Below, piece by piece: positions 29,428 through 45,075 of a DNA stretch of 54,327 nucleotides (positions are counted from its first letter, which is position 1; the number at the start of each line of letters is the position of its first letter). Both the position numbers and the translations under genes were made by a program. The notes beneath the pieces are model-generated. The model did not search any database. It saw nothing but the letters and a program-made list of their open reading frames with translations, and was not told where the DNA came from. The stretch comes from an uncultured Clostridia bacterium (GTDB lineage: Bacteria; Bacillota; Clostridia; Christensenellales; Borkfalkiaceae): contig CAKQKA010000001.1 of NCBI GenBank assembly GCA_934247855.1, forward strand, positions 1 to 54,327. Reading direction: 5' to 3'.

Positions 29428-29560
29428 ATGCTGAAAAACGGTTTGCGTGCGGGCGTAGCGGGGCGTTGAAAAAAATCTGCGGTCCTGAATGGGTAATAAA
29501 ACGATAAACATATATAGATTTTAAAATTGAGTAAATATTCGGTATTAGCGAGGTATTGGC

Positions 29561-29651
29561 ATACGCGAACGCAACGCTGTGTCAGCAAAAACACGGGCGC
29601 AAGAGCGAGGTTGTTTTATTCTTGTTTGGCATAAATGAAAGGGGTGGTAAT
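29561..29651 (+). repeat. partial copy of the 3' part of the 40586-40864 element
   Basis: ATACGCGAACGCAACGCTGTGTCAGCAAAAACACGGGCGCAAGAGCGAGGTTGTTTTATTCTTGTTTGGCAT matches 40792-40864 at roughly 85-90% by eye. Weaker similarity continues ~15 nt further. Confidence 0.8.
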
Positions 29652-29702
29652 TTTTAGCAACTAAAATAAATAATAAAAGATTTAATTACGGTCGGTATCC
29701 GC

Positions 29703-29731
29703 TTGACAAGATATAGTGCGATAGATATAAT
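29703..29731 (+). promoter_or_regulatory. consensus promoter with no ORF behind it
   Basis: TTGACA, 17-nt spacer, TATAAT. Followed by hairpin CGGCTTGCG/CGCAAGGCGG (29761-29784) and TTTTTT (29794-29799). Confidence 0.5.
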
Positions 29732-29885
29732 AAATGCGAACATACGTTCTAAAACTAAGACGGCTTGCGTAGGTCGCAAGGCGGCAGGCGGCGTTTTTTA
29801 CCGAACATAAAGCGTGCGTTTTCAGCCGAAAGGAGAGTGTAAAAAATAATTTTGTAAAAATATAATAAAAAATGTCGGTTATGTA

Positions 29886-29914
29886 TTGAAAAACTGAAGT
29901 AAAGCATTTATAAT
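29886..29914 (+). promoter_or_regulatory. consensus promoter of the 29965 gene
   Basis: TTGAAA, 17-nt spacer, TATAAT. Confidence 0.55.
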
Positions 29915-29964
29915 TTGTGACGTAACGCAGATTGTCTGTTTATGAACGTATTTGGGGGAAAATT

Positions 29965-30441
29965 ATGAATGATGTAATCAAAACTTTACTTTACAGTTAT
30001 CCGTCTTTCGACGCGGTTGTAGAAGCTACCGATAAACTTGTCTATTATAAGGCGATAACTTCTTATAAGAATAATTCCAAGACGTGCGACCAGATGAACG
30101 AAATTCTTGCGCTTAACGAGCGTTCTTCGCGTATTTGTTGGATTAAAGGTGTTATAGACCGACTTTTAAGTGAGTTGACGCCGTTTGAAAGACAACTTGT
30201 CGAGTATAAATATTTTCATATCGATAAGGCGTACGATTTTGATCCAAGCTCGAGGGGGTATTTCAGAAAGCAACTTAAACTTGAAAAGACGATTGAAAAA
30301 TTGCTTGATTATTTAAAGCCCGACGAAGAGTGGTTTATGGAAAATCTCGGGGATATTTATTTTTTGCGTTCAAAATATAAAAAGATAAAAAAGATGTCCG
30401 AGTGCGGGAAGAAAAACTCCGCGAAAGAAAGAAATCTATAA
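29965..30441 (+). CDS. putative phage transcription regulator (sigma-70 region-4 / ArpU-RinA-like), family uncertain
   Basis: 158 aa from the ATG with a GGGGGA RBS. LTPFERQLVEYKYF resembles region-4 HTH proteins that activate late genes in Firmicutes phages. Confidence 0.4.
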   Translation: MNDVIKTLLYSYPSFDAVVEATDKLVYYKAITSYKNNSKTCDQMNEILALNERSSRICWIKGVIDRLLSELTPFERQLVEYKYFHIDKAYDFDPSSRGYFRKQLKLEKTIEKLLDYLKPDEEWFMENLGDIYFLRSKYKKIKKMSECGKKNSAKERNL

Positions 30442-30609
30442 TATTGTAAAATATTAACGGGGAAATTAAAAATGAGGCGGCTCAGGTTAGGGGTAGTGTT
30501 GCGCTTGTCCGGTATTACGCAATGATGAGCAAAAAATGTGTTTACTAAAAGTGCAAGAAAAAAGTCGTCCGTAAAACAAAGCGAAAGCAAGTTTAAAGGC
30601 GACGCAAAA

Positions 30610-31527
30610 TCATAACAGGTCGTCGGAGTCTTTATCGGTGAAAGCGCACCGATGTTTGCGGCTCGGTTTAAAAAGAAGATAGACGACGCTCAGCGCAACA
30701 AGCGATACGGCTAAAACTATTACGGTTTTCAGCGCGGAATCGGTTCCGGTTGCGTAGGGCGTCGTTTGTTTTGGCGGAAATTCGCTGCCCGAGAGGGAAG
30801 ATGCGTCGATTGGGCTGCTGTCGTTTTTTGATTTTATCGGCAGCGAATGAGGCGGAACGGCGGCATCGGTAAAAGCCTTCGCGCGGACGTAACCTATGTA
30901 TCCGTTTGAATATACGCAGTAAAATTGTTCGCCGTTTATTTCTGAATAACCGTAAAAATGGCAGGTTTTACCGGCGGCGATGACCGCTTTGGGTGTGGTA
31001 GCCTTAGCGTCGGCGAACAAAACCTCGTCGGAGGAAAGTTCAAAATCGCAATCGGGGTACGGGCTGTCGTCGCAAACGTAATCGCAGGGATAGTAATACT
31101 TTATAAGAATAAACCCGTCGCGCGCGGGCAGGTTTGCCGATTCGTCCATATAGCGCACGGAAACGCTGTCCTCGCCCACGGATAAAACCTTTACAAAATA
31201 CCCGTATGGCAACACGAATTTGGCTATAGTGCACCCCGGATCGGCGTAAAACACGGTGTTTTCGTCAAGAATACGGGAATATTTTTGCGTTGTCGTACCG
31301 CTTTGCAAAGCTGCGGTCGCATATTGCGCGTCGGCATTTTGCAAAGCTACGTTCGCGTGATTTTGTCCGACGGTTATCATATTTTGCTCGTTAGCCGCCG
31401 TATAATTTTGCGCGTTGCAAGGCAAAACGCTTTGAGGACGGACTTGCATTATAAGAATGCAAAACGCAAGCGTTATACAAAATATTAAATTCAGGGCCAA
31501 AATGGGCAGAGAGTTTCTTTTTTTCAT
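30610..31527 (-). CDS. hypothetical secreted/membrane-anchored protein
   Basis: 305 aa with an N-terminal signal-like helix, two beta-rich SH3-like segments and a C-terminal TM anchor (VIVLAVSLVALSVVYLLF). TGATATAAT lies 9 nt before the ATG, so the mRNA may be leaderless. Confidence 0.55.
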   Translation of the reverse strand: MKKRNSLPILALNLIFCITLAFCILIMQVRPQSVLPCNAQNYTAANEQNMITVGQNHANVALQNADAQYATAALQSGTTTQKYSRILDENTVFYADPGCTIAKFVLPYGYFVKVLSVGEDSVSVRYMDESANLPARDGFILIKYYYPCDYVCDDSPYPDCDFELSSDEVLFADAKATTPKAVIAAGKTCHFYGYSEINGEQFYCVYSNGYIGYVRAKAFTDAAVPPHSLPIKSKNDSSPIDASSLSGSEFPPKQTTPYATGTDSALKTVIVLAVSLVALSVVYLLFKPSRKHRCAFTDKDSDDLL

Positions 31528-31600
31528 ATCGTTTGTATTATATCATAAAGAAAATAACGAAAAAGGTCGTTTTTTGACGTAAGGGGGTAATATTGGTCGA

Positions 31601-33004
31601 ATGCGCGAAATAATAGAAAAAATTCACGAGATCGAGAAGGAAGAAAAACGCCGTACGAGCAGGCTTGACGGTTATAATAAAGATAAAATTCATCTTAAGC
31701 AAATGGCTTTTCACAAATGCAAAAAGGGCAACAGGTGGGTGTTCGGCGGAAACCGAAGCGGCAAAACCGAGTGCGGCGCGGTGGAAACGGTGTGGATTTC
31801 AAGAGGTATTCACCCGTACCGCGAAAACCGAAAAAATACTTTCGGGTGGGTGGTTTCATTGACTTCGCAAGTTCAGCGCGACGTGGCGCAAAAAAAGATA
31901 TTGTCCTATCTTTCCCCGCGTGATATTGTGGACGCGGTTATGCTCAGCGGGCGCAAGGATAGCCTCGATAACGGTGTTATAGACCAACTTTTTATAAAAA
32001 ACGCGTTCGGCGGGATATCTGTTATCGGGTTTAAAAGTTGCGACCAGGGGCGTGAAAAATTTCAGGGTGCGTCGCTGGATTTTGTGTGGTTCGACGAAGA
32101 ACCGCCCAAGGATATTTACGACGAGTGCAAAATGCGTTTGCTTGATAAACGCGGTTGCATGTTCGGAACTATGACTCCGCTCAAAGGTCTGACTTTTATT
32201 TACGATGAGATTTACCTTAATGTGAACGACTCGCCCGACGTGTGGTATGAGTTTATGGAATGGGGAGATAATCCCTATCTTGACGAAGAAGAAGTGCGCA
32301 AGATGACGGAAAGTTTATCTAAAGACGTGCTGGATTCCAGACGGTACGGGCATTTCAAAGCCGACAGCGGCATGGTGTATTCCGAGTTTGACGAGCAAAA
32401 ACACGTTTTACCCGAGCCGTTTGAACTGCCGTACGACTGGCAGGCGTGTATTTCTATCGACCCGGGGCTGCATAATCCGCTTTCCTGCCACTTTTACGGT
32501 GTGGATTACGACGGCAATATTTACGTTGTCGCCGAGCATTACGAAGCGGAAAAAACTATTTCTTACCACGCGCGGGCAATCGAACGCATTGCCGATTCGC
32601 TCGGTTGGCATCGCCGCTTGGACGGCAGGCTCGAAGCGTTGATCGACAGCGCGGCAAATCAAAAAACGCTTGCTTCCTCTAAAAGCGTTACAGAATTGTT
32701 CTTTGAAGAGGGTATCGCTTGTAATCCTAACGTTAATAAAGAAAAGTTTGCGGGCATTGCGCGGGTGAAAGAGTATTTTAACGCGAACAAAATAAGAATT
32801 TTCCCTAACTGCAAAAATCTTATCCGCGAGATAAAAAATTACAGGTGGGGTGACGACGATTCGCCCATAAAAAAGGACGATCACGCTTTGGATGAGTTAC
32901 GTTATTTTATAATGTCGCGCCCCGAGAATAAACCGCCCAAACGCGAACTTACCGAAATACAAAAGGACAAAGCAAGGCTTTATCGTCGTTTGTCGCGCAG
33001 GTGA
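31601..33004 (+). CDS. terL: phage terminase large subunit
   Basis: 467 aa. Walker A GGNRSGKTECG, Walker B LDFVWFDEEP, C-terminal RNaseH-like nuclease segment (ISIDPG...DSAA...DDHALDELRY). Confidence 0.85.
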   Translation: MREIIEKIHEIEKEEKRRTSRLDGYNKDKIHLKQMAFHKCKKGNRWVFGGNRSGKTECGAVETVWISRGIHPYRENRKNTFGWVVSLTSQVQRDVAQKKILSYLSPRDIVDAVMLSGRKDSLDNGVIDQLFIKNAFGGISVIGFKSCDQGREKFQGASLDFVWFDEEPPKDIYDECKMRLLDKRGCMFGTMTPLKGLTFIYDEIYLNVNDSPDVWYEFMEWGDNPYLDEEEVRKMTESLSKDVLDSRRYGHFKADSGMVYSEFDEQKHVLPEPFELPYDWQACISIDPGLHNPLSCHFYGVDYDGNIYVVAEHYEAEKTISYHARAIERIADSLGWHRRLDGRLEALIDSAANQKTLASSKSVTELFFEEGIACNPNVNKEKFAGIARVKEYFNANKIRIFPNCKNLIREIKNYRWGDDDSPIKKDDHALDELRYFIMSRPENKPPKRELTEIQKDKARLYRRLSRR

Positions 33005-33018
33005 AAGAACCGAAAGTG

Positions 33019-33037
33019 CCGATAATCGACCTATAGG
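33019..33037 (-). repeat. dispersed intergenic motif, copy 10
   Basis: + strand reads CCGATAATCGACCTATAGG followed by CGGGGTTTT; 15 nt after the terL stop. Confidence 0.9.
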
Positions 33038-33087
33038 CGGGGTTTTATGTGTATTTGTGTGCATTGCATGCGGCATGTGAAAGTCGG

Positions 33088-33104
33088 GCTATAGGTCGAT
33101 TATT
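33088..33104 (+). repeat. dispersed intergenic motif, copy 11
   Basis: GCTATAGGTCGATTATT, inverted relative to copy 10 and 69 nt away. Confidence 0.85.
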
Positions 33105-33195
33105 TTATATTAAAAAAATATCGGATTAAAAAGCATTGAAGACTGCAAGCTGTATAAAAAGTGTGCGTTTATGCTAAAAAAACATGCTTAATCGA

Positions 33196-33224
33196 TTGTA
33201 AAACGCGCCTGATTGTGCTAAAAT
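33196..33224 (+). promoter_or_regulatory. promoter of the GNAT gene, near-duplicate of the cysS promoter
   Basis: TTGTAA AACGCGCCTGATTGTGC TAAAAT versus the cysS TTGCAA AACGCGCGCGATTGTGT TAAAAT. Confidence 0.5.
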
Positions 33225-33254
33225 AAAAAAAATATCTATATGAGGTGTGAGCGA

Positions 33255-33800
33255 ATGAAATCAGAAAGATTAAAACATTTTGAAGGCGATATTTTCGAGC
33301 GGGCGTACGAGTTATATAAATCGTCCTTCCCCGTTGAAGAACGGCGCGACGATGCCGAACAGCGCAGGGTTCTTGAAAACGATGCCTATCATTTTGACAT
33401 AATCACGGAAAACGGCGAGTTTATCGGCATTATGCTCTATTGGGAAGTGAATAGTCTTATCTATCTTGAACACTTTGCGATTCGCAGTGATTTGCGTAAC
33501 AAAGGTTTCGGCACTGTCGCTCTTGATTTATTAAAGGAAAAAGGCAAGACTATACTGCTTGAAATCGAACCGCCCGTTGGCGATATAACCGTTCGCAGGT
33601 ATGAATTTTATAAACGCAACGGCTTTGTAATGAATTCTTTTTATCATATTCAGGCAAAATATCATTTTGGCGATGCCGATCTCGAACTGAAAATTTTGTC
33701 TTATCCGAGGCTGCTTGAAAAGGATGAATATCTCGCTTTTTACGGGTATATGACTCGTGAAATCGGTATTCAGCCGAGCGTGTCGGGCGAGATTGTTTAA
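33255..33800 (+). CDS. GNAT family N-acetyltransferase
   Basis: Acetyl-CoA motif FAIRSDLRNKGFGTVALDLL; ATG at 33255 with a GAGGTG RBS. Confidence 0.8.
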   Translation: MKSERLKHFEGDIFERAYELYKSSFPVEERRDDAEQRRVLENDAYHFDIITENGEFIGIMLYWEVNSLIYLEHFAIRSDLRNKGFGTVALDLLKEKGKTILLEIEPPVGDITVRRYEFYKRNGFVMNSFYHIQAKYHFGDADLELKILSYPRLLEKDEYLAFYGYMTREIGIQPSVSGEIV

Positions 33801-33986
33801 AACCGAGGACGATTTGCTTGCTCAATACGAAAAAACTATTGTTGAAAACTTTTACAAGGTAAACGACGCCGTGCGTCCGTACGTGAACGTTTTAGGCACG
33901 AAGATATCGTAAAGCGCGGCAACGTCGGAAAAATCGACGGCGAGGATGGCGACGAAATCGACTTTTATAAAATACATGAATATGTA

Positions 33987-34003
33987 GATAATCGACCTAT
34001 AGA
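33987..34003 (-). repeat. dispersed intergenic motif, copy 12
   Basis: + strand reads GATAATCGACCTATAGA followed by CGGGCTTTT. Confidence 0.9.
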
Positions 34004-34017
34004 CGGGCTTTTGCTTG

Positions 34018-34034
34018 TGTATAGGTCGATTTTT
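34018..34034 (+). repeat. dispersed intergenic motif, copy 13 (partial)
   Basis: TGTATAGGTCGATTTTT. With copy 12 it forms a perfect 9-bp hairpin, CGACCTATA/TATAGGTCG, followed by a T-run. Confidence 0.6.
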
Positions 34035-34103
34035 TATGATATAATAATTTTGTTACGACGAATGGGTGCTTTATAAATGGCGAGTGTGGGGTACTTACTT
34101 TTT

Positions 34104-34307
34104 TCAATCTTCAAGTCCTAATAAGTAATCGGTCGAAACATTAAAAAACTTCGCAATCGAAATTACATAAGAAATCTTCGGCTCGTTTATTCCGTTCTCC
34201 CAGTTAGAGATTGCGGCGTCCGTCGTATTAATATTTTTGGCAAGTTGCTTCATGGAAAGACCTTTTTCAAGCCTCAACTCCCTTAATCTTTGTGAAAACG
34301 TACTCAT
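34104..34307 (-). CDS. XRE-family HTH repressor (Cro/CI-like)
   Basis: 67 aa. LRELRLEKGLSMKQLAKNINTTDAAISNWENG is a canonical XRE HTH. Confidence 0.9.
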   Translation of the reverse strand: MSTFSQRLRELRLEKGLSMKQLAKNINTTDAAISNWENGINEPKISYVISIAKFFNVSTDYLLGLED

Positions 34308-34313
34308 GTATAC

Positions 34314-34370
34314 ATTATACTAAGAAAACTTAATATTTTACTTGACACTAAGAAAACTTAGTGATATTAT
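34314..34370. promoter_or_regulatory. divergent promoter/operator switch
   Basis: Palindromic operators CTAAGAAAACTTAA (34320-34333) and CTAAGAAAACTTAG (34348-34361). Rightward TTGACA (34342)-17 nt-TATTAT (34365), with the second operator filling the spacer. Leftward TATAAT (34314-34319, minus strand) lies 6 nt before the XRE ATG. Confidence 0.7.
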
Positions 34371-34405
34371 TATCATAAATTTATCCGATTACGTTTTTTT
34401 ACTTG

Positions 34406-34708
34406 CTTAGCCAGTAGTGATAGCGTTTGAACCCATTTTTGCGGCAATAAATCGGTTTTTGCTGTGTTAAACTCCCATCAACGTACGGTGGTTAAGTACG
34501 ATTTCGGTCGTTTGCCTTGCAAAAACCGTACCGCACAGCGGCGATTTCTTATCCGCAAAAATGCGTAGCACCGTAAAGAGCGTATTTTTAGATGTTTTTT
34601 TGCGAGCACGAATAATGCTGTACTGCCGTACTGCGTTATGAATGGTCGCATAAAGGGGCTAAAAAGCCGCCTTTACGGTGGAGTCAAACGCCATTACCAC
34701 TGGCTAAG
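34406..34708 (+). ncRNA. ~300-nt highly structured leader RNA (or MITE-like element), unassigned
   Basis: 25-position closing helix 34406-34430/34684-34708 (22 WC, 1 GU, 2 mismatches). Nested helices: 34436-44/34553-61 (9 bp), 34449-54/34542-47 (6), 34461-66/34534-39 (6), 34483-89/34525-31 (7), 34569-78/34671-80 (10), plus hairpin 34617-34634. Confidence 0.6.
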
Positions 34709-34742
34709 AGGAGGAATAAGGTTAATTTTAAAGGAGAAAGTT

Positions 34743-35792
34743 ATGAAGCATTCAACAAAAACAAAATTGATGGTTTTTATTACCGGTATTCTTTCGTGCA
34801 TGTTGCTGGTCTCGTTTGCCGCTTGCAAAATATCTGAAGAAAGCGATGAAACGAACGATTATTTTAAAGAATACAATATGTATCTGGTGTATGCCGCATC
34901 CGAGGATATTACGCCGCTTGATTATGAAACCTGGCTGGCAACGGTTAAAGGCGATAAGGGTGATAAAGGCGAGGACGGAAAAGACGGCGCCGACGGAAAG
35001 TCTGCTTACGAAATATGGTTGGAAAACGGACACACGGGAAGTCAAACCGATTTTCTTGAATGGCTTAAGGGCGAAAAAGGCGATAAGGGCGAAACAGGAA
35101 AAGACGGAACGAACGGAACAAACGGAACCGACGGTAAAGACGGAAGAGGTATAGAAAAAATAACATATAAAGACGGAACGTTAACTATAATTTATACCGA
35201 CGGAACAGGCGAAACAATTATTCTGCAAAATGAATCGAAAGGAACCGAAGGGCTGGAATACAGCCTATTATCGGATGATACGTATGGAGTAAAAGGCGGT
35301 ACAGCCTTGTACCTTAATAAGGTGACAATCCCCGCTACATATAAAGGAAAAGCGGTAACCCAAATTTTGGAGCATGCATTTGAAAATTCGACAAATTTGA
35401 AAGAAATACAATTACCCGATTCGATCGAGAAAATACAAAGCTATGCTTTTAACGGATGCAAGGCTTTAGAAAATATTACAATTCCGTCATCCGTGAAATT
35501 TATTGGCGAATATGCATTTTACGGTATAAAAAATGCTACGTTTGAAGATGAAGAAACATGGAAAAATGTGGTGAAACCGCGCTCGGTATATAAATTTAAC
35601 GTTTTTATCAATAATTCAGGATATCCCGACAGTAGTCATAAATTATATGCTGTCGATAGTTTTAGTTTAGTTAAATTATTATCGGACAGAGTCAATGTGC
35701 AAGTTAGTAGTTATGATCAAATGTTTTTAGAAAGTGGATGTAAAAACGAATACAAGAATTTAACTTTATATGAATATAGTTACAGCAAATAA
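34743..35792 (+). CDS. lipoprotein with collagen-like Gly-X-Y repeats and BspA-type leucine-rich repeats
   Basis: Lipobox LVSFAAC. GDKGDKGEDGKDGADGKSAYEIWLENGHTG...GEKGDKGETGKDGTNGTNGTDGKDG resembles phage-fibre collagen segments. C-terminal LRRs (ILEHAFENSTNLKEIQLP, IQSYAFNGCKALENITIP). AAAGGAG RBS before the ATG at 34743. Confidence 0.8.
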   Translation: MKHSTKTKLMVFITGILSCMLLVSFAACKISEESDETNDYFKEYNMYLVYAASEDITPLDYETWLATVKGDKGDKGEDGKDGADGKSAYEIWLENGHTGSQTDFLEWLKGEKGDKGETGKDGTNGTNGTDGKDGRGIEKITYKDGTLTIIYTDGTGETIILQNESKGTEGLEYSLLSDDTYGVKGGTALYLNKVTIPATYKGKAVTQILEHAFENSTNLKEIQLPDSIEKIQSYAFNGCKALENITIPSSVKFIGEYAFYGIKNATFEDEETWKNVVKPRSVYKFNVFINNSGYPDSSHKLYAVDSFSLVKLLSDRVNVQVSSYDQMFLESGCKNEYKNLTLYEYSYSK

Positions 35793-35835
35793 ATCAATTT
35801 TTAAATAAATAAAATACAAAATAGTACTTAAAAAT

Positions 35836-35861
35836 CGCACTCTTAACGGGGTGCGTTTTTT
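35836..35861 (+). terminator. intrinsic terminator
   Basis: CGCACTC pairs with GGGGTGCG (7 bp including one GU), then TTTTTT. Confidence 0.75.
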
Positions 35862-35959
35862 ATGCCCAAAATTGTTGCTGTGGCGAGTAATTGTAGGAAA
35901 AGTGCGATTTTTAACGCAAAGATTTTTAAAAAAACGTGAAAAACGTTGTCATAAAACTC

Positions 35960-35987
35960 TTGAAAACTGAAAAATCGGCGATATGAT
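35960..35987 (+). promoter_or_regulatory. promoter of the packaging/head operon
   Basis: TTGAAA, 16-nt spacer, TATGAT; ~170-nt leader before the 36162 ATG. Confidence 0.45.
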
Positions 35988-36161
35988 ACCTTGCGTGGAT
36001 GAACGGCGAACGGGTGGCGGAGCAAAACGCAGATATTCGGTTGCTGCGAGTGCTGTGCATTAACGGCTGCAACGGCGCGCGTAACTAAATAACCGTGCGT
36101 AAAGTTAAGCGATGTGTCATAAGCAAAACAAGCGGGAGGCGAAGTTATACGGGGGAAATAA

Positions 36162-36635: not shown

Positions 36636-36819
36636 AAACGAGTATGAAACGATTTGCGACGTCAAGGGTTGCACGCGAATGGCAGAATACAGGTTGATTA
36701 TGGACGTTGCGAGCGACGGACAGGTTTGTATGTGTATGGAGTGCTTAAAGGAGTTCAATCGCGAGGCGTCGAAGAAAATCAGAGCGGAGGAAAGGAAAAA
36801 TGCAAAAAAAGACGGCTGA
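36622..36819 (+). CDS. small Zn-ribbon-like protein
   Basis: GTG start with an AAAGGAAGG RBS; 65 aa with Cys pairs CDVKGC and CMCMEC. Overlaps both neighbours, suggesting translational coupling. Confidence 0.45.
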   Translation: MKIVKNEYETICDVKGCTRMAEYRLIMDVASDGQVCMCMECLKEFNREASKKIRAEERKNAKKDG

Positions 36820-38680
36820 AGAACAGCTTAATCAAAGGCTGGCTAAAGAGATTACCGAAGATTTTGAAAGGCGGCGCGAGGAGCGCAGAACGCTCGAGCA
36901 GCAATGGAAGCTGAACATCAATTATCTTATGGGCAATCAATACGCCGAAATTGCGCCGAGCGGCGAGATTGACGAAGAAGTTAAGGATTATTTCTGGCAA
37001 GGCAGGAACGTCTATAACCATATCGCGCCGATCGTTGAAACGAGGATTGCTAAACTTGCAAGGGTTCGCCCTGTTATGTCCGTACGGGCGTCGGGCGAAG
37101 AAGAACGCGATCTGAAAGCTGCAAAAATGGCAAGCGCGCTGCTTTCTACCACTTTTTCGCGGTTGGAGATGAGCGACGTGATTTACAAGGCGACTTTATG
37201 GAGCGAAACGCTGGGCACTTCTTTTTACAAGGTGACCTGGGACTACAACGGCGGTAAGAAGGTGGGCGAAAACGATAAAGGCGCGGTGTACGAGGGCGAC
37301 GTAAGAGTTGAGGCTCTTTCGCCGTTCGATATCTACCCCGACAGCCTTTTCCGAGAGGATATCGACGATCAGAAGAGTATAATTCACGCCCGTGCCATGA
37401 ACGTTGACGACGTTGCGGCGATTTACGGCAAAAGGCTTATCGGCAGCGACGTGGACGTATTTTCGCTTGAAAAAAACACTTGCGGAGGGCAGACGTTCTT
37501 TTCCAAACGCATAACGGGCGGCACTCTGCGCGACAGCGTTGTGGTAATCGAACGGTACGAAAAGCCGAGCGAAGAGCACCCCAACGGCAGAGTTGTAACA
37601 GTTGCTTCGGGCGAGGTGCTTGCGGTTGGCGAACTGCCGTATATCAACGGCGAAGAGGGCAGGCGCGTTTATCCGTTCGTGCGGCAAATTTCAATCAATC
37701 AGGCGGGTTGCTTTTTCGGCGTAAGCGTAATAGACAGGCTTATTCCGTTGCAGCGAGCATATAATGCGGTAAAAAACAGAAAACACGAGTACTTAAACCG
37801 CGTAAGTATGGGCGTTGTTACCGTAGAGGACGGATCTATCGATACCGATGCGCTCGTGGAGGACGGCTTGTCGCCGGGTAAAGTGCTTGTTTACAGGCAG
37901 GGTTCAACGCCGCCGCGGTTTATGGCTTCGGCAACCGTGCCGCCGGACTTTACCTATGAAGAAACAAGGCTTGAGCAAGAGTTCATCAACGTCAGCGGAG
38001 TAAGCGAGTTTTCAAGAAATTCCGACGTGATGTCGCAGAATATAAGCGGCGTTGCGCTGGAGCTTATGGTCGAGCAGGACGAAACAAGGCTTACCACGTC
38101 CGCCGAAAACGTGCGCCGCGCCGTGCGGATAATCGGCAAACAAATAATAAGATTGTTCCGCCAGTACGCCAAACCGTCAAGAATGATGCGGGTGGCCGGG
38201 CGCGGCAATTCGGTCGAACTGTATTATTTTAATTCGGACGACTTAACCAGCGACGACGTTGTGTTCGATACCGAAAACGAACTGTCGTCAAGCCCCGCGC
38301 AAAAGAAAAGCGCGGTGTACGATATGTTAAAGGCGGGACTTTTGTCCGACGACGACGGCAAGATGAACCAGCGCACTAAGGCGAAAATACTTGAACTATT
38401 GGGGTTCGGCACGTTGTCGGGCGCGCAGGATATAACCAATCTGCACATAGACAAGGCTCAGCGCGAAAACATAGGCTTTTCAAACATGGATTTCGAGCCG
38501 GAGGAATTCGACGACCACGCGATTCACGTTACGGAACACACGCGGTTTTTGCTGTCCGAGGATTTTGACGGCAAGGAAGAGATAAAAAACAAAATAATAT
38601 TGCATCTTCGCAAGCACAAACAGCTGATCGGCGTCGAGCTTGCGGAGAATATTTTGGAGGATAACAATGAAGAAAAATAA
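36800..38680 (+). CDS. phage portal protein
   Basis: 626 aa, positioned between terminase-like and scaffold/coat genes. N-terminus EQQWKLNINYLMGNQY is portal-like. Confidence 0.75.
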   Translation: MQKKTAEEQLNQRLAKEITEDFERRREERRTLEQQWKLNINYLMGNQYAEIAPSGEIDEEVKDYFWQGRNVYNHIAPIVETRIAKLARVRPVMSVRASGEEERDLKAAKMASALLSTTFSRLEMSDVIYKATLWSETLGTSFYKVTWDYNGGKKVGENDKGAVYEGDVRVEALSPFDIYPDSLFREDIDDQKSIIHARAMNVDDVAAIYGKRLIGSDVDVFSLEKNTCGGQTFFSKRITGGTLRDSVVVIERYEKPSEEHPNGRVVTVASGEVLAVGELPYINGEEGRRVYPFVRQISINQAGCFFGVSVIDRLIPLQRAYNAVKNRKHEYLNRVSMGVVTVEDGSIDTDALVEDGLSPGKVLVYRQGSTPPRFMASATVPPDFTYEETRLEQEFINVSGVSEFSRNSDVMSQNISGVALELMVEQDETRLTTSAENVRRAVRIIGKQIIRLFRQYAKPSRMMRVAGRGNSVELYYFNSDDLTSDDVVFDTENELSSSPAQKKSAVYDMLKAGLLSDDDGKMNQRTKAKILELLGFGTLSGAQDITNLHIDKAQRENIGFSNMDFEPEEFDDHAIHVTEHTRFLLSEDFDGKEEIKNKIILHLRKHKQLIGVELAENILEDNNEEK

Positions 38681-39365
38681 CGACGCTCTCGAAAACGCGG
38701 GCGGAAAAGAGATATTATGCGAAACGGAACAAGGTGCGGACAAGCCGGCAAGCGACGCGCCCTCCGTCGGCAAGTTCGCCGACGCGGAATCTCTTTTGAA
38801 AGCGTATAATCAACTGGAGTCGGAATTTACCAAACGCAGTCAAAGACTTCGGGAGTTAGAAAGGGAATATGCCGATTTAAAACAGGAACAATCCGATAAT
38901 CGCGCCGAATCGGAAGCCGTACAGGATGAAACGGGGAGTGCGGCGGAGGAAAGGGCGAGTAAGGACTCCGTTATCGGCGAGGACGGCGGTATCGCAATCG
39001 AGGTGGAACGCTTTTTGAAAGACAATCCGGAGGCAGGATTATATGCCGACGAAATTGTTAAAAGAGCCGACCTCGAGGGCGAGCCTGAGAGCGGTTTTCT
39101 TGATCGCGCATACGTCGGCGTGCTTAAAGACATGCTGCGCCGCGAGAAAGAAAAAATAACCGACGAATTCATTCTGGAGCGCGCGCTGAACACCAAGTCC
39201 GTGCGCGACGAGATTATTCGCGGTTATCTTGCGGAGATTTATTCCGCAAAAAAAGAGTGTCTTTTGACGGGGAGCAGCGGCGAATCCGCGATAGCCCCGC
39301 CGATAAAGCCCTCTACTATATCCGAAGCGGGCAAAATGGCAGTTTCGGTTTTAAGAAAAAAATGA
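38667..39365 (+). CDS. phage scaffolding protein
   Basis: 232 aa, acidic coiled coil (LESEFTKRSQRLRELEREYADLKQEQ) with a basic C-terminus. GGAGG RBS. Sits directly upstream of the coat gene. Confidence 0.65.
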   Translation: MKKNNDALENAGGKEILCETEQGADKPASDAPSVGKFADAESLLKAYNQLESEFTKRSQRLRELEREYADLKQEQSDNRAESEAVQDETGSAAEERASKDSVIGEDGGIAIEVERFLKDNPEAGLYADEIVKRADLEGEPESGFLDRAYVGVLKDMLRREKEKITDEFILERALNTKSVRDEIIRGYLAEIYSAKKECLLTGSSGESAIAPPIKPSTISEAGKMAVSVLRKK

Positions 39366-39383: not shown

Positions 39384-40559
39384 ATGGTAACAATGAACAG
39401 TGCGGACAATGCGCTTAAGTCACTCTATCTCGGCGTTGTATCCGAGCAACTCAATACGAGCGTAAACCCCTTGCTTGCAAAAATCAAGCAGACCACGCAG
39501 GACGTGTGGGGTAAGGAAATTCGTCGCCTTGCGCAGTACGGTATCAACGGCGGTATCGGCGCGGGTACGGAGGACGGAACTCTTCCTGCCGCGGCGGGTA
39601 ATAATTACGACCAGTTCGTGCTTACGCTTAAAAACCTTTACGGCACTATCGAAATTTCCGATAAAGCGGTGCGTGCGTCCGAAAACAACGTCGGCGCGTT
39701 CGTGAACCTGCTCAACGCCGAAATGGAAGGTTTGCTTAAAGCCTCTTCCTTCAACTTCGGCAGAATGCTTTTCGGCGACGGAAACGGTACGCTCGGCAAA
39801 GTATCCGAGGTTAAAGACGACGGTTCGGTCGTGCTCGACGGCGTTAAAAACGTAGTCGAAGGTATGGTAATAGATTTCCTTTCGTCCGCGGGCGCTGCAA
39901 TCGACGGAGCAAGCGGCAGAAGAATTACTTCGGTAGACAGGGCGAGTAAGACTATAACCGTCAGCGGAACCAAACTTACTTCCACTACCGTTCCCGCAAA
40001 CAGCATTATCACCGTTCAGAATTCTTACGGCAAGGAAATCACAGGTCTTAAAGCGATTTTCTCGTCCACGGGCAAGCTTTACGGACTTGACCGAGCCACA
40101 CATAAATGGCTTATTCCGCACATGAAAACCAACGTGGGTACTATTTCCGAAACGGTTATTCAGGAGGCTATCGACACGCTCGAAGAAAACACGGGCAGTC
40201 AGGTAAACTTCATCGTCTGTTCGTCGGGCGTTAAGCGTGCGTATCAGAAAGCGCTTGCGGCTTACAAACGCAATATAGACGTTATGGAACTGCAGGGCGG
40301 TTACAAGGCTTTATCATACAACGGTATTCCCGTCGTGTCCGACAGATTCTGCCCGGACGGCACTATGTACCTGCTCAATACCGACGACTTCGCGCTGCAT
40401 CAGCTTTGCGACTGGAAATGGCTCGAAGGCGAGGACGGCAGGGTAATCAAGCAGGTTGCCAACAAGCCCGTATATTCCGCTACGCTCGTTAAATACGCCG
40501 ATCTGGTATGTACAAGACCGTGCGGTCAGGCTATGCTCAGCGGTATAACCGAAGCATAA
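39384..40559 (+). CDS. phage major capsid (coat) protein
   Basis: 391 aa, position after scaffold, with long conserved-looking beta-rich sequence. Family (HK97-fold, possibly P22-coat-like) not verified. Confidence 0.7.
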   Translation: MVTMNSADNALKSLYLGVVSEQLNTSVNPLLAKIKQTTQDVWGKEIRRLAQYGINGGIGAGTEDGTLPAAAGNNYDQFVLTLKNLYGTIEISDKAVRASENNVGAFVNLLNAEMEGLLKASSFNFGRMLFGDGNGTLGKVSEVKDDGSVVLDGVKNVVEGMVIDFLSSAGAAIDGASGRRITSVDRASKTITVSGTKLTSTTVPANSIITVQNSYGKEITGLKAIFSSTGKLYGLDRATHKWLIPHMKTNVGTISETVIQEAIDTLEENTGSQVNFIVCSSGVKRAYQKALAAYKRNIDVMELQGGYKALSYNGIPVVSDRFCPDGTMYLLNTDDFALHQLCDWKWLEGEDGRVIKQVANKPVYSATLVKYADLVCTRPCGQAMLSGITEA

Positions 40560-40585
40560 TTCATTCTATTATTGTCCGGCATGCA

Positions 40586-40864
40586 ATGCCAGCCAAGAGT
40601 AATACGAACCCCGCCAAAACGCTGATATTTACACCCTTTTTGTCAAACTCTCGCTTGAAGTACGTCTAGTACGTCGGCGTTCGACTTTGCCAAAAATCAT
40701 CGAAAATAGCAGCGTTTTGGTTGCAGACAAGTCTTGCGCCCATGTTTTTAGGTAAGACAAGGCGCGTGAGCGCGTTAATACTACACGTATAACACGCGAA
40801 TGCAACGCTGTATTAGCAAAAACACGGTCGCAAGACCGAGGTTCGCTTTATTCTTGTCTGGCAT
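40586..40864 (+). ncRNA. ~280-nt helix-bounded intercistronic element after the coat gene
   Basis: ATGCCAGCCAAGAGTAA (40586-40602) pairs with TTATTCTTGTCTGGCAT (40848-40864): 15 WC, 1 GU, 1 mismatch. Inner 12-bp helix 40613-24/40710-21. GNRA hairpin CGGTCGCAAGACCG (40826-40839). No promoter seen. Confidence 0.5.
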
Positions 40865-40908
40865 CTGGGCGGGTAATCCGCCCCGAAATAATTATTCGGA
40901 GGAAAATC

Positions 40909-41472
40909 ATGACAGTAAAAAATGTGCTTTGCGAGGCGGCGAAATTGCTCGGTGAAAGCGACGTCGTAAATTATCTGTCCGATAAAATACCCGACGATGT
41001 CGCCTATTGCGAAGAAACCGAAACGGCGTTGAAACATTGTTACGACGTGGTTATCGACGAAATCGCTTGCGAATATATGCCGCTTATTTATAGCGAAAAG
41101 TTGAGCGCAAAAAGCGGAACAATCGATTATTCCGACTTTTCAAAAACGCCCGTGCGCATTAAAAAAGTGTGTGACGAAAATGATAATAAGTTGCCCTATA
41201 GGTCGTTTATCGACCATTTGGAAGTAAATAGCGACTATGCGTCGGTGACCTATGAATACAAACCCGAAACGCAAAACGGCAACGACGAGGCGTATTATTC
41301 AAACGGCATAATCGGCGTGTACGTTTTGTCTTACGGTATTGCCGCGGAGTTTTGCACCGAGCGCGGAAGAATTGCCGACGCCGAGGTGTGGATCGGTAAG
41401 TTTGCAAGTGCGATGCGTGCGCGCGTCGCCGAAAAAGGTCGGCTGAAAATAAAAAACAGGAATTGGTGCTGA
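40909..41472 (+). CDS. hypothetical phage protein (possible head-completion/adaptor by position)
   Basis: 187 aa, GGAGG RBS, first gene after the coat gene. Confidence 0.6.
   Translation: MTVKNVLCEAAKLLGESDVVNYLSDKIPDDVAYCEETETALKHCYDVVIDEIACEYMPLIYSEKLSAKSGTIDYSDFSKTPVRIKKVCDENDNKLPYRSFIDHLEVNSDYASVTYEYKPETQNGNDEAYYSNGIIGVYVLSYGIAAEFCTERGRIADAEVWIGKFASAMRARVAEKGRLKIKNRNWC
41195..41212 (+). repeat. dispersed motif, copy 14, inside a CDS
   Basis: CCTATAGGTCGTTTATCG read in frame as PYRSFID within ORF 40909-41472. Confidence 0.8.
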
Positions 41473-41473
41473 A

Positions 41474-42892
41474 ATGTATTACAATAAACAGGCGATAAAA
41501 GCTACCGTCGGGCGAGGTTCGGTTACCGTCAAAGATTTTTCCGCGGGTATAAACGGGAATAAAGACGAAGAAAATTTATCGCTCGGCGAGTGCGCTTTTT
41601 CGTATAATTTCAATATGCAGGGCGGCACGCTTAAGGACGGAAACGGCGTTAAAAAATCCGATTTCGGCAACAGTCCCGTATTTTCTGAAGCGGGCGTTAA
41701 GCCTGAACGGCTGTATTTTTATAAGCGATACAACAAGGATGCAAAGGCGTACGACGAGTATTTACTGATTTATGCGAGCGATAAAGAGATTTATGCGGCA
41801 AAAAGCACGGAGGAAAAGTTTAAAAAAGTGGACGGGCTGTATTTTTACACGCCGCCATACGCTTGTTCGTATAACTACATGGGCGATGACGTAATGATTT
41901 TTTCCTCCGACGAAAAGATGAAAGTTTACGACGGAACGACCGTCACCACGGTGGAAAACGTGCCGTCGGTAACGTCTATGTGCATTCATTCCGAGCGGCT
42001 TTTTGCAACCGAAGGCGGTACTAAAACTTCGCTGTGGTTTTCCGACGATTTCAATCCGCTTAACTGGAAAGTTTCGCTTGACGAGGCGGGTTTTATCGAT
42101 ATACGCGAGGGTGTGGGCAGTCTTTTAAAGGTTGTGTCTTTCAAAGATTACGTCTATGTTTTTGCCAATTACGGTATAGTGCGCGTTTCGGCATACGGCG
42201 ATCAGACGGAGTTTTCTGTTGACGGAATTGCCGCGTCTTCGGGAAAAATCCGCGGCGATAGCATTGCCGTGTGCGGCGACAGGGTGATTTATCTTGCGGA
42301 GGACGGGTTTTATTTGTTTTCGGGCAGTTCTCCGCAGCGAATAATGCGCAAAATCGACGGTAAAATCGCGGGCGCGGATAACTCCGACGCCAAAGGTTGC
42401 TATTTTAACGGAAATTATTATTGCAAGCTGAAAATGCAGTCCGATTGCGGCGTGCGCGACGTGCTTATAAAATACGATATTCACCGCGGTACTTTTGCGG
42501 TATCGAGCGAACTCGATATTAACGATTTTGTCGTTGCGGACGGCGAAAAGGCGTGCGAATTGCTGTTTTTGATAAACGGTAAAGCGCAACCGGCAATGCT
42601 GTCGGACAGGGCGGAAAACTTTTCCGTTCCGCTCGATAAGCATTGGCTGAGCGGTAAAACCGACCTCGGTACCACCGAAACAAAAAGGGTAACGAGGCTG
42701 TCGCTGAGAACGCTTACGGAGATTTACGTTACCGTAAAAAGCGAGCGCGGAAGTCGAATATTGCACTTTTTCGGAAGTAGCGAGCGGCAGTCGCGCGCGG
42801 TCGGGTTAAAGGGCGATTTGTTTACCGTAAGCATAGATTGCCGAACGCCGGGCGCAACGATATCTGCGCTCAGAATAGAATACGAATACTGA
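41474..42892 (+). CDS. hypothetical phage protein, possibly P22 gp10-like tail-hub/neck protein
   Basis: 472 aa, coupled to the upstream stop, beta-rich and repeat-like. The size, position and C-terminal ...ISALRIEYEY ending recall P22 gp10. Weak, from recall only. Confidence 0.55.
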   Translation: MYYNKQAIKATVGRGSVTVKDFSAGINGNKDEENLSLGECAFSYNFNMQGGTLKDGNGVKKSDFGNSPVFSEAGVKPERLYFYKRYNKDAKAYDEYLLIYASDKEIYAAKSTEEKFKKVDGLYFYTPPYACSYNYMGDDVMIFSSDEKMKVYDGTTVTTVENVPSVTSMCIHSERLFATEGGTKTSLWFSDDFNPLNWKVSLDEAGFIDIREGVGSLLKVVSFKDYVYVFANYGIVRVSAYGDQTEFSVDGIAASSGKIRGDSIAVCGDRVIYLAEDGFYLFSGSSPQRIMRKIDGKIAGADNSDAKGCYFNGNYYCKLKMQSDCGVRDVLIKYDIHRGTFAVSSELDINDFVVADGEKACELLFLINGKAQPAMLSDRAENFSVPLDKHWLSGKTDLGTTETKRVTRLSLRTLTEIYVTVKSERGSRILHFFGSSERQSRAVGLKGDLFTVSIDCRTPGATISALRIEYEY

Positions 42893-42914: not shown

Positions 42915-43781
42915 ATGCAAGATACTGTAAGACGAATCGAAAATCTTGAAAAACGATTATCGCGGCTTGAAAAAAGCGAAAAAACCGCCTGTTATAACTT
43001 TTATCTGGCGACGAAAGAACGAACGGTTGCTTCCCGCAAGCACGAGATGAGTTTTACGTTTGTTTCAAAATGCGAGCAATGTTTGTTTTTTACGCTTGAA
43101 ATCGAAACTCAAAGTCCGAAATACAATGCCGTAATAGAGGTTGACGGTGCGAAAGCCGTTGCCGCGCAGTGCGAAAAAAACGGTAAAATCGAATTTATCG
43201 CGCCGCTTAATGCGGGTGAAAAAACGATTTCCGTAAAACTAAGTTCGACCTCGTCGTTCTTTGTAAGGCGGGCAACGCTTAAAACGTACGGCGCGATCGG
43301 ATATCCCGATGGCGAATGTTTTGTAACCGTTATAAACGAGGGACTTAAAAGTCATGTTTGCTATTGTTACGATAACGAACTGCTTGTAAAAGAGTACGTC
43401 GAAACGTTGCTTACGATGATACAGATTCAGGGCGCAAAGTGCGGTACGATCTGCAAGGTCGGCGATTTGCTTGCCGTTTTTTACATCGACCTTTCGGGTA
43501 TGCTTTGGGGCAGGTATTACACGAGCGACGAGTATGATTTAGTGCGTTCATGCCTTATTGATCAGGGCGTATCGGCGGTTTGCGCGCTTTCCGGCGGAAA
43601 CGAGGCGACATTGTTTTCGGTAAAGGGCGGCAGGGTGTATCGTTACACGGTGGATAAAAATTTCAATCTTACAACGCAGATTACCGAGTACGGCGCACGG
43701 CGCGTTTCCTGTGATCCGTCGCTTCCGGGCTACATCATAATAACCGACTTTTCCGGTAACGGAAAAATTATAAAAATATAA
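42915..43781 (+). CDS. hypothetical phage protein with an N-terminal coiled coil
   Basis: 288 aa, AGAGG RBS. RRIENLEKRLSRLEKSEK, then a beta-rich domain. Could be a needle/plug by position. Confidence 0.55.
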   Translation: MQDTVRRIENLEKRLSRLEKSEKTACYNFYLATKERTVASRKHEMSFTFVSKCEQCLFFTLEIETQSPKYNAVIEVDGAKAVAAQCEKNGKIEFIAPLNAGEKTISVKLSSTSSFFVRRATLKTYGAIGYPDGECFVTVINEGLKSHVCYCYDNELLVKEYVETLLTMIQIQGAKCGTICKVGDLLAVFYIDLSGMLWGRYYTSDEYDLVRSCLIDQGVSAVCALSGGNEATLFSVKGGRVYRYTVDKNFNLTTQITEYGARRVSCDPSLPGYIIITDFSGNGKIIKI

Positions 43782-43808
43782 AATAAGCCATTCTCAAGGG
43801 GGGTAATT

Positions 43809-44018
43809 ATGATTAAACGAAGAGGCGCGGTAAGGCTGGTTAATGCGGGTAATAAATTGGCGTTGGTTTCAAAGCGTAAGGACGGTAATCTCGTCAAAAG
43901 CGACGTGGGTGAACAACTTTCGGCTGCTATGCCGCTTTGCGCTGCCGACGACGCGATTACTTTATACGACGGTAAAATTTTGCTTGTTACAAAGGGCAAT
44001 CTGTCTGTTTGCGAATAA
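43809..44018 (+). CDS. hypothetical small protein
   Basis: 69 aa, GGGGGG RBS. Confidence 0.5.
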   Translation: MIKRRGAVRLVNAGNKLALVSKRKDGNLVKSDVGEQLSAAMPLCAADDAITLYDGKILLVTKGNLSVCE

Positions 44019-44061
44019 CGATAAAAGGTTTTGTGTGGCGATAATAAAGATAAGAAGTAAG

Positions 44062-44079
44062 TCTATAGGTCGATTATCG
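44062..44079 (+). repeat. dispersed intergenic motif, copy 15
   Basis: TCTATAGGTCGATTATCG, 44 nt after the stop at 44018. Confidence 0.9.
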
Positions 44080-44120
44080 TATATTTTGCAGGTTTAATAT
44101 CATTATTATACGGAGGTAAT

Positions 44121-45023
44121 ATGAGATATAAAATGCCGGTTACTGCCGAGCAGTATACCGAAATAAACAAAAAGAATACAAAAAGTCAGGATAAGGAAAA
44201 ACTTGAAAAAGAGTTGGGCGAGTTAAGCAAACTTGCTTCGTCGGCGGTATCTGAAGCCGTCCGCAAAGAGTACGGCGCGGAATATTTAAAACCCGACGAA
44301 ACAACCGACGAGGAACTTTTGAAAAGAGCCGAAGAGAGCACCAAACAAAAAATCGCGTCGGAAAAAGACGAACTCGTGCGCGATAACGAAAAGGCTGTCG
44401 GCGCGCTGAACGAAAAAGCCGAAAACGAGAACAAAAATCTTGCCGAAGCAAAAAAGAATATCGAAGAGCGTTACGACAGCGCGAAAAAAACTGCTTCCGA
44501 CGACGCTTTAAAGCGCGGTTTGGGCAGGAGTTCGATTATAGTCAATCTTCTTAAAGAATATGACGCCGACAAACTGAAAACTATAGATGAAAAAGACAAA
44601 AAATACGGTGACGAACTGAAGAAGATAAACGATGAAATTACCGAGCTTAACGCCGAACTTAAATCCTCGCTCGATAAAGCCGACATGCGCGAAGCGTTCG
44701 AGATAAACGAGAGGTTGACCGAACTCAAATCCGAACGCGACAATGCAAACGAAAAGGTTATCAAGTATAACAACTCGCTTGCCGAAAAACTCGGCGAGCT
44801 TAAAAAGCAGCTTGAAAATAGTTCGACGCGCGGGCACGTCATCGTAGAAGCCGAAAGACTTGCCGACGAGTATAACAATCAGATGCTTAAAAAAATTATC
44901 GGTTATTATTCAAATCTTTCCGACGACGAAATCAAAAAGGATTTTGAAGACGGCAAGTACGATGGTATTCTCTCGCCCGATGCATATAGAAAATTGCAGA
45001 CGTACGTCAATAATAAGCGTTAA
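44121..45023 (+). CDS. hypothetical K/E-rich coiled-coil protein
   Basis: 300 aa, GGAGG RBS, almost entirely predicted helical and charged. Host or phage origin unclear. Confidence 0.6.
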   Translation: MRYKMPVTAEQYTEINKKNTKSQDKEKLEKELGELSKLASSAVSEAVRKEYGAEYLKPDETTDEELLKRAEESTKQKIASEKDELVRDNEKAVGALNEKAENENKNLAEAKKNIEERYDSAKKTASDDALKRGLGRSSIIVNLLKEYDADKLKTIDEKDKKYGDELKKINDEITELNAELKSSLDKADMREAFEINERLTELKSERDNANEKVIKYNNSLAEKLGELKKQLENSSTRGHVIVEAERLADEYNNQMLKKIIGYYSNLSDDEIKKDFEDGKYDGILSPDAYRKLQTYVNNKR

Positions 45024-45035
45024 AAAAAGATTTAA

Positions 45036-45061
45036 AAGCCTTCCTTAACGGGGAGGCTTTT
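45036..45061 (+). terminator. intrinsic terminator
   Basis: GCCTTCC pairs with GGGGAGGC, then TTTT. Confidence 0.7.
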
Positions 45062-45075
45062 ACTATTTAAACCTG

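Follow-up and report, generated by a model that had tools for sequence, protein, structure and literature searches.

To our knowledge, gene transfer agents (GTAs) have been described from very few lineages. The closest described system is FpGTA of Faecalibacterium prausnitzii, a validated podovirus-like GTA encoded by a ~10.5-kb operon, whose particles have ~40 nm capsids and carry 8.4–8.9 kb of host DNA (PMC12946183, Nat Commun 2026;17:2046). Reported in January 2026, it is the first GTA of podovirus-like type from gut bacteria (PMC12946183). In the same report, virus-like particles from the gut were sequenced by nanopore and showed GTA-like packaging in the Christensenellaceae genera HGM11616 (4.1/7.1 kb) and QANA01 (6.3 kb), and the sections and supplements covered here identify a gene cluster for Faecalibacterium only (PMC12946183). 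Here we describe a podovirus-type head, neck and nozzle module of 13 genes in the chromosome of an uncultured Clostridia bacterium of the Borkfalkiaceae (Christensenellales). It lies within a stretch of 54,327 nucleotides (contig CAKQKA010000001.1, assembly GCA_934247855.1), hereafter the window. The module is best explained, with reasonable though not high confidence, as encoding a domesticated GTA-like DNA-packaging particle. A literature search brought up no further paper describing an element of this kind.

As described in those sections, FpGTA shares with the module a gut Clostridia host, a podovirus-like character and the lack of integrase and replication genes. Both comprise a TerS-like protein without an obvious DNA-binding domain, TerL, a portal, a protein encoded between portal and major capsid protein (MCP), MCP, small or unknown proteins and a tail nozzle. 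The FpGTA gene order from the portal to the last gene parallels that of the module, and its last protein, which is charged, ‘TolA-like’ and abundant in particles, corresponds in place to the charged DUF7934 protein predicted from the last gene of the module. By contrast, terL directly adjoins the portal gene in FpGTA, whereas the TerS-like and zinc-ribbon genes intervene in the module. FpGTA also has a second operon with fibres, a receptor-binding protein, a holin and an endolysin; no counterpart is known for the module. The FpGTA capsid protein belongs to the N4-gp56 family by NCBI name (RCH50849.1), whereas the window MCP matched NF033394 (capsid_maj_Podo) at 1.2e-89 and gave no TIGR04387 match at E < 0.01. 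The two MCPs are thus not close homologues, implying independent domestication or very deep divergence. A profile search of 1.84 billion representatives, combined with name look-ups, returned Clostridiales, Anaerofustis and Patescibacteria entries and no Faecalibacterium entry. This comparison uses NCBI family names and gene order, and on the family names we treat FpGTA and the module as functional analogues rather than as one family.

RcGTA of Alphaproteobacteria is also a phage-derived head and packaging cluster that is chromosomally fixed, vertically inherited across an order and under purifying selection. Its TerS is short, integrase and replication genes are lacking, and auxiliary genes are located outside the cluster. 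Unlike the module, it is siphovirus-like, has tail-tube and tape-measure genes and stems from an unrelated phage lineage, and its CtrA/GafA regulation has no counterpart here. PBSX, a phage-like element of the Gram-positive Bacillus subtilis, packages host DNA at random, but it is a defective prophage of myovirus type that has a contractile tail and lysis genes of its own and forms a killing particle. The gene order of phage P22 is gp1-gp8-gp5-gp4-gp10, and the portal, scaffold, coat, putative adaptor and hub genes of the module follow this order. Unlike P22/SU10-type phages, the module lacks spike or fibre genes and lysis, replication and lysogeny modules, and no needle or ejection protein was recognisable in it. 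The nearest sequenced phages were actinobacterial and podophage-like (Microbacterium phage Shocker, Cellulosimicrobium phage DS1 and Arthrobacter phage Jasmine), with 22–29% identity.

The module was located at 29.9–45.0 kb of the window by an open reading frame (ORF) map and Pfam, PHROG and NCBIfam scans. Upstream it is flanked by comEC and downstream by yqfC-yqfD-phoH, and housekeeping genes (cysS, alaS, holB, sbcCD, dnaE, der, plsY, comEC, yqfCD, phoH, ybeY, era and recO) make up the remainder of the 54-kb window. Terminator-like hairpins on the plus strand form its left boundary after comEC (29392–29421; 11-bp stem with seven GC pairs and a T-run) and its right boundary (45040–45056). Its genes encode, in order, a RinA-like activator, an antisense membrane protein, TerL, a TerS-like protein, a zinc-ribbon protein, portal, scaffold, MCP, a putative adaptor, nozzle, a 288-aa protein, a 69-aa protein and the DUF7934 protein. 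All 13 are intact in the window, and the module measures ~11 kb when uninterrupted. The G + C content at third codon positions (GC3) of the structural genes was 0.49–0.61, inside the host range. Domain and PHROG scans of the main ORFs revealed no integrase, replication, holin/endolysin, tape-measure or tail-tube genes in the window. An earlier reading of this DNA (the original prediction) had claimed a podovirus-like head and neck gene island at 29433–45070 with intact structural ORFs and none of the last-named functions. These claims were borne out, and the genes lie where it had placed them. Its gene list was correct as far as it went and missed two conserved members, the RinA-like regulator and the antisense membrane protein, while about 3 kb of its island (33005–36106) proved to be unrelated cargo.

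A P22/SU10-type portal, an HK97-class MCP and a tail nozzle are present together in the module. TerL (467 aa, 31601–33004; all genes are on the plus strand unless stated otherwise) matched Terminase_6N (6.6e-10), Terminase_6C (1.2e-7) and phrog_2 (8e-30) and showed 63–82% identity across species. Its match to the PBSX terminase family, the sole link to PBSX at the sequence level, was below threshold (29.6 bits against a cut-off of 105). The TerS-like protein (157 aa, 36162–36635) matched only phrog_309, a terminase small subunit family, and a profile search of PDB sequences with its family gave no match to solved TerS structures. The conserved core of this protein is its first ~95 aa. In the window it carries a Lys/Ala/Glu-rich low-complexity C-terminal extension of ~60 aa (36450–36635), which all other species lack and which overlaps the start of the zinc-ribbon gene in another frame. 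The zinc-ribbon protein (65 aa, 36622–36819) has four invariant cysteines (CDxxGC ... CxxC) across seven orthologues. The portal (626 aa, 36800–38680) matched P22_portal (1.8e-25), SU10_portal (1.5e-11) and phrog_156 (1e-40). The scaffold-like protein (232 aa, 38667–39365), encoded between portal and MCP in all loci, has only a sub-threshold coiled-coil-type Pfam match (APG6_N) and no family assignment. The MCP (391 aa, 39384–40559) is of the HK97 class, matched phrog_14242 (8e-66) and SU10_MCP besides NF033394, and was 69–88% identical across species. Profile searches with the portal and MCP against PDB sequences returned nothing useful.

Downstream of the MCP gene, the 472-aa protein (41474–42892) is a tail nozzle or hub protein of the P22 gp10/T7 gp12 class. 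It matched phrog_3287 (virion structural protein) at 3.5e-10, and its AlphaFold2 model, built from a 44-sequence alignment, had a predicted local distance difference test score (pLDDT) of 88 and a predicted template modelling score (pTM) of 0.88. The best Foldseek match of the model was the Pa223 tail (9nwi_Y; E 5.6e-20, TM 0.72), followed by the tails of VP1, GP4, Pan3, SU10 and T7 and by the P22 tail (9jg6_a, a chain of 470 residues; TM 0.63). Because the model matches podovirus tail nozzles including that of P22, the protein is gp10-like at the fold level, which confirms the original prediction on this point. Profile searches of PDB sequences with the 187-aa, 472-aa, 288-aa and DUF7934 families returned nothing useful, and only the structure-based search identified the nozzle. 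The 187-aa protein (40909–41472), encoded between MCP and nozzle, is a putative head-to-tail adaptor. SU10_adaptor (PF24175) was matched weakly by four of the 19 members of its family (best E 0.0027), and these matches together with its position suggest the adaptor role, lending slight support to an earlier likening of this ORF to P22 gp4.

Three further genes complete the module. The 288-aa protein (42915–43781) was modelled by AlphaFold2 from a six-sequence alignment (pLDDT 77) as an N-terminal, coiled-coil helix, a beta-sandwich and a propeller-like domain. Comparison of the model with PDB and BFVD, and a PHROG scan of 18 orthologues, yielded only generic lectin, sugar-binding and propeller folds and no assignment. 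The protein evolves fast, with 25–35% identity between species, and a role as tail tip or receptor-binding protein is plausible from the model. The claim that the island lacks every adsorption function is therefore not established, since an architecture of this kind could bind a receptor. No tailspike, fibre or needle family or fold was found in the module. The 69-aa protein (43809–44018) has positional orthologues of 64–92 aa (mostly 70–76 aa) in most loci; like the other small module proteins, it is not hydrophobic enough for a holin. The last gene encodes a charged coiled-coil protein of 300 aa (44121–45023; DUF7934, PF25588, 1.4e-32) and occupies the same position in related loci. Some more distant relatives from IMG/VR carry, in this distal region, a gene for a ~800-aa PHROG ‘tail protein’ together with one for a 680–704-aa protein (L094, 11968–16419; L133, 14407–19884). 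The ~800-aa gene directly follows the nozzle gene in L094 and a 149-aa ORF in L133. This arrangement suggests that distal tail proteins have been swapped in a lineage-specific manner.

A homologue search with the capsid protein returned more than 6,500 relatives, of which the best 120 were at least 75% identical. When one genome was scanned for each GTDB species, a relative turned up in at least 539 of these representatives. The record titles of carriers name Christensenellaceae, Christensenella, Catabacter and Candidatus Borkfalkia from human, ruminant and chicken guts, and NCBI places Borkfalkia in Christensenellales. The exact capsid protein was found on dozens of gut-metagenome contigs, in a cluster with a member named Candidatus Borkfalkiaceae bacterium / Christensenellaceae bacterium. 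Gene order was identical in nearly all of the 80 loci fetched: regulator (plus strand), membrane protein (minus strand), TerL, TerS-like, small protein, portal, scaffold, MCP, and proteins of 187, ~475, ~290–300 and ~73 aa, followed by DUF7934. The uninterrupted ~11-kb module is seen, for example, in L141 (4245–15342) and L088 (4313–15274). The yqfC-yqfD-phoH flank is common to the closest relatives only, and other lineages have other housekeeping flanks (nrdD/dut ... thrS or ScmC/PqqD ...). The check, suggested earlier, of whether relatives carry the island at the same locus gave a positive answer for the closest of them only.

Across these three chromosomal contexts, no integrase, replication or lysis genes were found within 10 kb in the flanks examined, with the exception of an integrase in the cargo of one strain (L003). 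Because the annotated flanks of relatives lack such genes, the module is not an ordinary prophage cut by the window edge, a possibility that the original prediction had itself raised. The same observations bear on a helper-dependent element resembling a capsid-forming satellite, which would make its own heads and nozzle, need a co-resident or infecting phage for induction, fibres and lysis, and spread itself. Capsid-forming phage-inducible chromosomal islands (cf-PICIs) have capsid, portal, terminase and connector genes of their own and no tail; the module likewise has terminase, portal, capsid and connector genes and no fibre or lysis genes, and its relatives are labelled viral in IMG/VR. Most IMG/VR matches, however, are short contigs holding the same chromosomal module. 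Moreover, cf-PICIs are mobile and patchy and have integrase, regulatory and replication genes, none of which was found in the module loci examined; likewise, apart from the L003 cargo integrase, the loci with flanks examined contained no integrase, excisionase, replication or primase genes. Within the lineage the module is fixed beside yqfC-yqfD-phoH with divergence similar to that of its flanks, and its order-wide distribution looks vertical rather than patchy. A satellite, one of three candidates named earlier, is therefore disfavoured, and we regard it as improbable.

Selection was estimated by the Nei-Gojobori method between the window and three other strains, at synonymous divergence (dS) of 0.1–0.3. 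The MCP gene had 44–48 synonymous and no non-synonymous differences between strains, giving a ratio of non-synonymous to synonymous divergence (dN/dS) of 0. Ratios were 0.02 for the regulator, 0.039 for TerL, 0.04 for the portal, 0.09–0.12 for the putative adaptor, 0.06–0.11 for the nozzle, 0.12–0.14 for the 288-aa gene and 0.05–0.13 for DUF7934, so that the structural genes together ranged from 0 to 0.14. Among the flanking genes, phoH (0.05–0.09) and yqfD (0.15–0.30) gave ratios in a range similar to that of the module, and era gave 0.016. The dS of the island (0.09–0.31) overlaps that of the flanks (0.10–0.44). In comparison with a sister species (L009), identity was 89% for MCP and 78% for TerL and portal, against 74% for Era, 73% for PhoH and 70% for YbeY. 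The 187-aa, 472-aa, 288-aa and DUF7934 proteins diverge much faster between species (25–55% identity), and fast divergence of distal genes is typical of tail-end components. The module is under strong purifying selection, the outcome of a dN/dS comparison that had been proposed as a check. The earlier argument for long residence and co-evolution with the chromosome, rather than a recent or decaying prophage, is supported by these ratios together with the distribution and the host-like GC3.

These data weigh most directly on an ordinary defective prophage remnant in slow decay. Such a remnant would account for the loss of integration, replication, lysis and fibre genes, for the insertion of cargo inside the module and for a 300-nt element between the MCP and adaptor genes. 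Against it, none of the 13 genes is disrupted in the window and the module is found again in dozens of species, the structural genes are constrained as described, and the MCP evolves more slowly than the housekeeping proteins encoded next to it, a pattern that a decaying prophage would not show. We consider decay very improbable. As the constraint on TerL and portal matches that on the capsid protein, DNA packaging itself appears to be under selection.

This constraint also bears on an encapsulin-like reuse of the phage capsid as a DNA-free protein compartment. The MCP is of the HK97 class, and in the cultured Eubacteriaceae Anaerofustis stercorihominis (CP176644.1; L144/L145, 9191–11230) a 262-aa gene in the scaffold position and a 409-aa capsid gene of the same family stand alone among housekeeping genes. 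Because no portal or terminase gene, and no tail gene, lies within 10 kb of this pair, it may be a capsid-only derivative, and capsid-only derivatives of the family may exist. Encapsulin-type shells have neither portal nor terminase, whereas the module has both at dN/dS ~0.04, and it also keeps a putative adaptor and a nozzle under strong constraint, all of which would be purposeless in a sealed compartment. An encapsulin-like compartment, also proposed earlier, is thus disfavoured for the module, and we find it scarcely credible.

A GTA-like particle fits best of the three candidates proposed. As in GTAs, a chromosomal, phage-derived structural and packaging cluster is present without integration or autonomous replication functions, in the window and in the 10-kb flanks of relatives. 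It has also been maintained in the host lineage, as its broad distribution, conserved order, dN/dS of 0–0.14 and flank-like dS show. On these comparisons, the best explanation is that the module is chromosomal and vertically inherited, that it derives from a P22/SU10-type podovirus and that it was domesticated by Christensenellales. We infer expression, assembly, packaging of host DNA, release and delivery of particles as follows. The activator would turn on the plus-strand genes in a fraction of cells, and procapsids would be built on the portal with the aid of the scaffold protein. DNA, most likely that of the host, would then be loaded in headfuls by TerL and the TerS-like protein, each piece being shorter than the module, and the adaptor and nozzle would close the portal channel. 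The resulting particle would be a small, DNA-filled capsid bearing a stubby tail. Release would depend on lysis functions that the host supplies or that are encoded outside the module.

A domesticated particle that serves some purpose besides transfer, the main rival, would be under the same selection and show the same conservation. It might kill in the manner of PBSX, packaging DNA without delivering it, or it might serve DNA release or act as a decoy or defence against related podophages. The module adjoins a defence hotspot in the source species, the conserved antisense membrane protein could act in exclusion, and a PBSX-like alternative was raised for FpGTA in the covered sections of its report (PMC12946183). 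Known killing particles have a contractile or long tail, which the module lacks; moreover, TerL and portal are constrained like the capsid, indicating that packaging is selected, and the sequence holds no pointer to a toxin. We consider a non-transfer role unlikely, yet not so far-fetched as a satellite.

Several observations weigh against a GTA-like particle. Neither a lysis gene nor a clear receptor-binding protein was found in the module or the 54-kb window. The TerS-like assignment is weak, with a single PHROG match at 1.6e-5. In the source species a stretch of 3.1 kb, exceeding 7 kb in some strains, parts terL from the rest, which might disturb co-expression, although terL stays at dN/dS 0.04. 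Some relatives have large tail-protein genes where the window has the 288-aa gene, and real phages occur in the capsid family (Shocker and Jasmine, 27–29% identity). Finally, the covered sections link the packaging in HGM11616 and QANA01 neither to the source organism nor to carriage of the module (PMC12946183).

The wider reading that the module is the cluster behind the GTA-like packaging in Christensenellaceae, that it represents an independent, order-wide domestication of a P22/SU10-type phage, and that its terL/TerS-like junction in the source species also serves as a landing pad for strain-variable defence genes is tentative, and we lean slightly towards doubting it as a whole. The fragments of 4.1/7.1 and 6.3 kb given in the covered sections are shorter than the ~11-kb module, so that, if the module does make those particles, its packaged pieces could not carry it, the hallmark of a GTA. 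The conserved 13-gene candidate makes the question of Christensenellaceae packaging directly testable. Christensenellaceae are among the most heritable and health-associated gut lineages. If the GTA-like interpretation is true, capsid-mediated gene flow would extend to a lineage relevant to host health, and the module would provide a second, apparently independent case of how podoviruses become domesticated, as well as an example of defence islands settling within such an operon.

The junction between terL and the TerS-like gene holds ~3.1 kb of strain-variable cargo (33005–36106) that is not phage-derived. It includes a GNAT gene (33240–33800) and a lipoprotein gene with a lipobox and collagen and LRR_5 (BspA-type LRR) repeats (34638–35792), followed by a terminator (35836–35855). 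With a GC3 of 0.36–0.44, the cargo genes lie below most genes of the window. No gap separates terL from the TerS-like gene in any of the other species examined; in L141, for instance, the terL stop at 6977 is followed by a gene start at 6978. Strains of the same species with an identical capsid protein carry other genes there (L002, 1–6200; L003, 1–6200; L004, 1–6400), namely a type III restriction–modification (RM) system with TIR, a type II RM system close to an integrase gene (the L003 integrase mentioned above is part of this cargo set) and AbiEi/AbiEii. Because these strains differ in cargo, the junction is a hotspot for variable cargo in the source species, often of defence genes. The collagen/LRR gene was considered as a tail fibre and rejected on account of its lipoprotein signal peptide and its location in variable cargo.

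The first conserved gene of the module encodes a 158-aa putative late-gene activator (RinA/ArpU-like; 29965–30441) with a weak TIGR01636 phage_rinA match (E 1.2e-3), and it holds the same position in 47 related loci. Two predicted sigma-70-type promoter-like sites, identified by consensus match, lie upstream on the plus strand (29703–29914). The first, at 29703–29731, is a perfect consensus (TTGACA-17-TATAAT, 12/12), and the second, at 29886–29914, matches at 11/12 positions. The possibility that a small RNA follows the perfect promoter (29703) was considered and rejected, as the fold was no better than that of shuffled sequence (z = -0.85). The 305-aa antisense membrane protein (30610–31527, minus strand) has an N-terminal signal or transmembrane segment, SH3b-like repeats, a C-terminal transmembrane anchor and a weak SlpA domain match. 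Its dN/dS was 0.25, and its gene lies between the regulator gene and terL in 47 loci. In many Christensenellaceae a gene for a protein of 816–879 aa, absent from the window, lies immediately upstream of the regulator gene and is read in the opposite direction (L088, 1365–3974, minus strand, and 20 other loci, e.g. L090, L143, L078, L020 and L029). Besides a signal peptide and a C-terminal anchor, this protein has an SH3b-like segment and a large ectodomain that is rich in repeats and may be propeller-like; it gave no Pfam or PHROG match.

The window also contains an 18-nt motif, CCTATAGGTCGATTATCG, with an extended consensus of AAAAGTNNG-motif-NNNNTTTT. It occurs at 13 sites with at most two mismatches, against 0.01 expected, and at 19 with at most three. 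The sites lie 2–186 nt (mostly 15–90 nt) 3' of stop codons, in both orientations and across the whole window (among them 8477, 17206, 17274, 29333, 33020, 44062, 45076, 50706 and 51706), and the motif had no Rfam match. Seven copies had been counted inside the island, one of them in a coding sequence (CDS). The motif is real and non-random and one copy does fall within the 187-aa CDS (41195–41212), but only five copies lie inside 29433–45070 (33020, 33088, 33986, 41195 and 44062), and seven are reached only with the border copies at 29333 and 45076. These border copies form a direct repeat around the island, the only one that flanks it; because the motif occurs all over the window, the repeat is not an att site. 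We considered the motif as an att site or a promoter and rejected both, given its occurrence in both orientations and in intergenic regions throughout the window. Its positions are kept among strains, including the copy within the 187-aa CDS, and it is largely confined to the source species, with two copies each in two loci of other species. The island shares the intergenic ‘grammar’ of its host. As an argument for long residence, a motif that is mostly intergenic, window-wide and largely restricted to one species is weaker than distribution and selection.

An insertion of ~300 nt between the MCP and adaptor genes (40560–40866) is found in this strain only and is absent from six other strains. 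A ~50–80-nt repeat of it recurs at 29563–29640, upstream of the regulator gene, and a copy of the insertion lies after phoH in other strains (L006/L007, 17691–17891). It had no Rfam match and is possibly a small mobile or repeated element.

Upstream of the module, comEC (27802–29306) is split into a pair of ORFs that overlap; a -1 frameshift lies near 28462, directly before the conserved GIAHVFAVSGLHVG stretch, and a metallo-beta-lactamase domain was not detected in it. The frameshift is either that of a pseudogene or an assembly error. ComEC is required for uptake of RcGTA-delivered DNA, which makes the frameshift relevant here. An Rfam scan of the window and a permissive scan of 29.3–41.0 kb, which covers the motif and the 300-nt insertion, gave a sole match, located outside the island. 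It is a 6S RNA gene directly upstream of comEC (27399–27599, minus strand; RF00013, 49.1 bits, E 7.5e-7).

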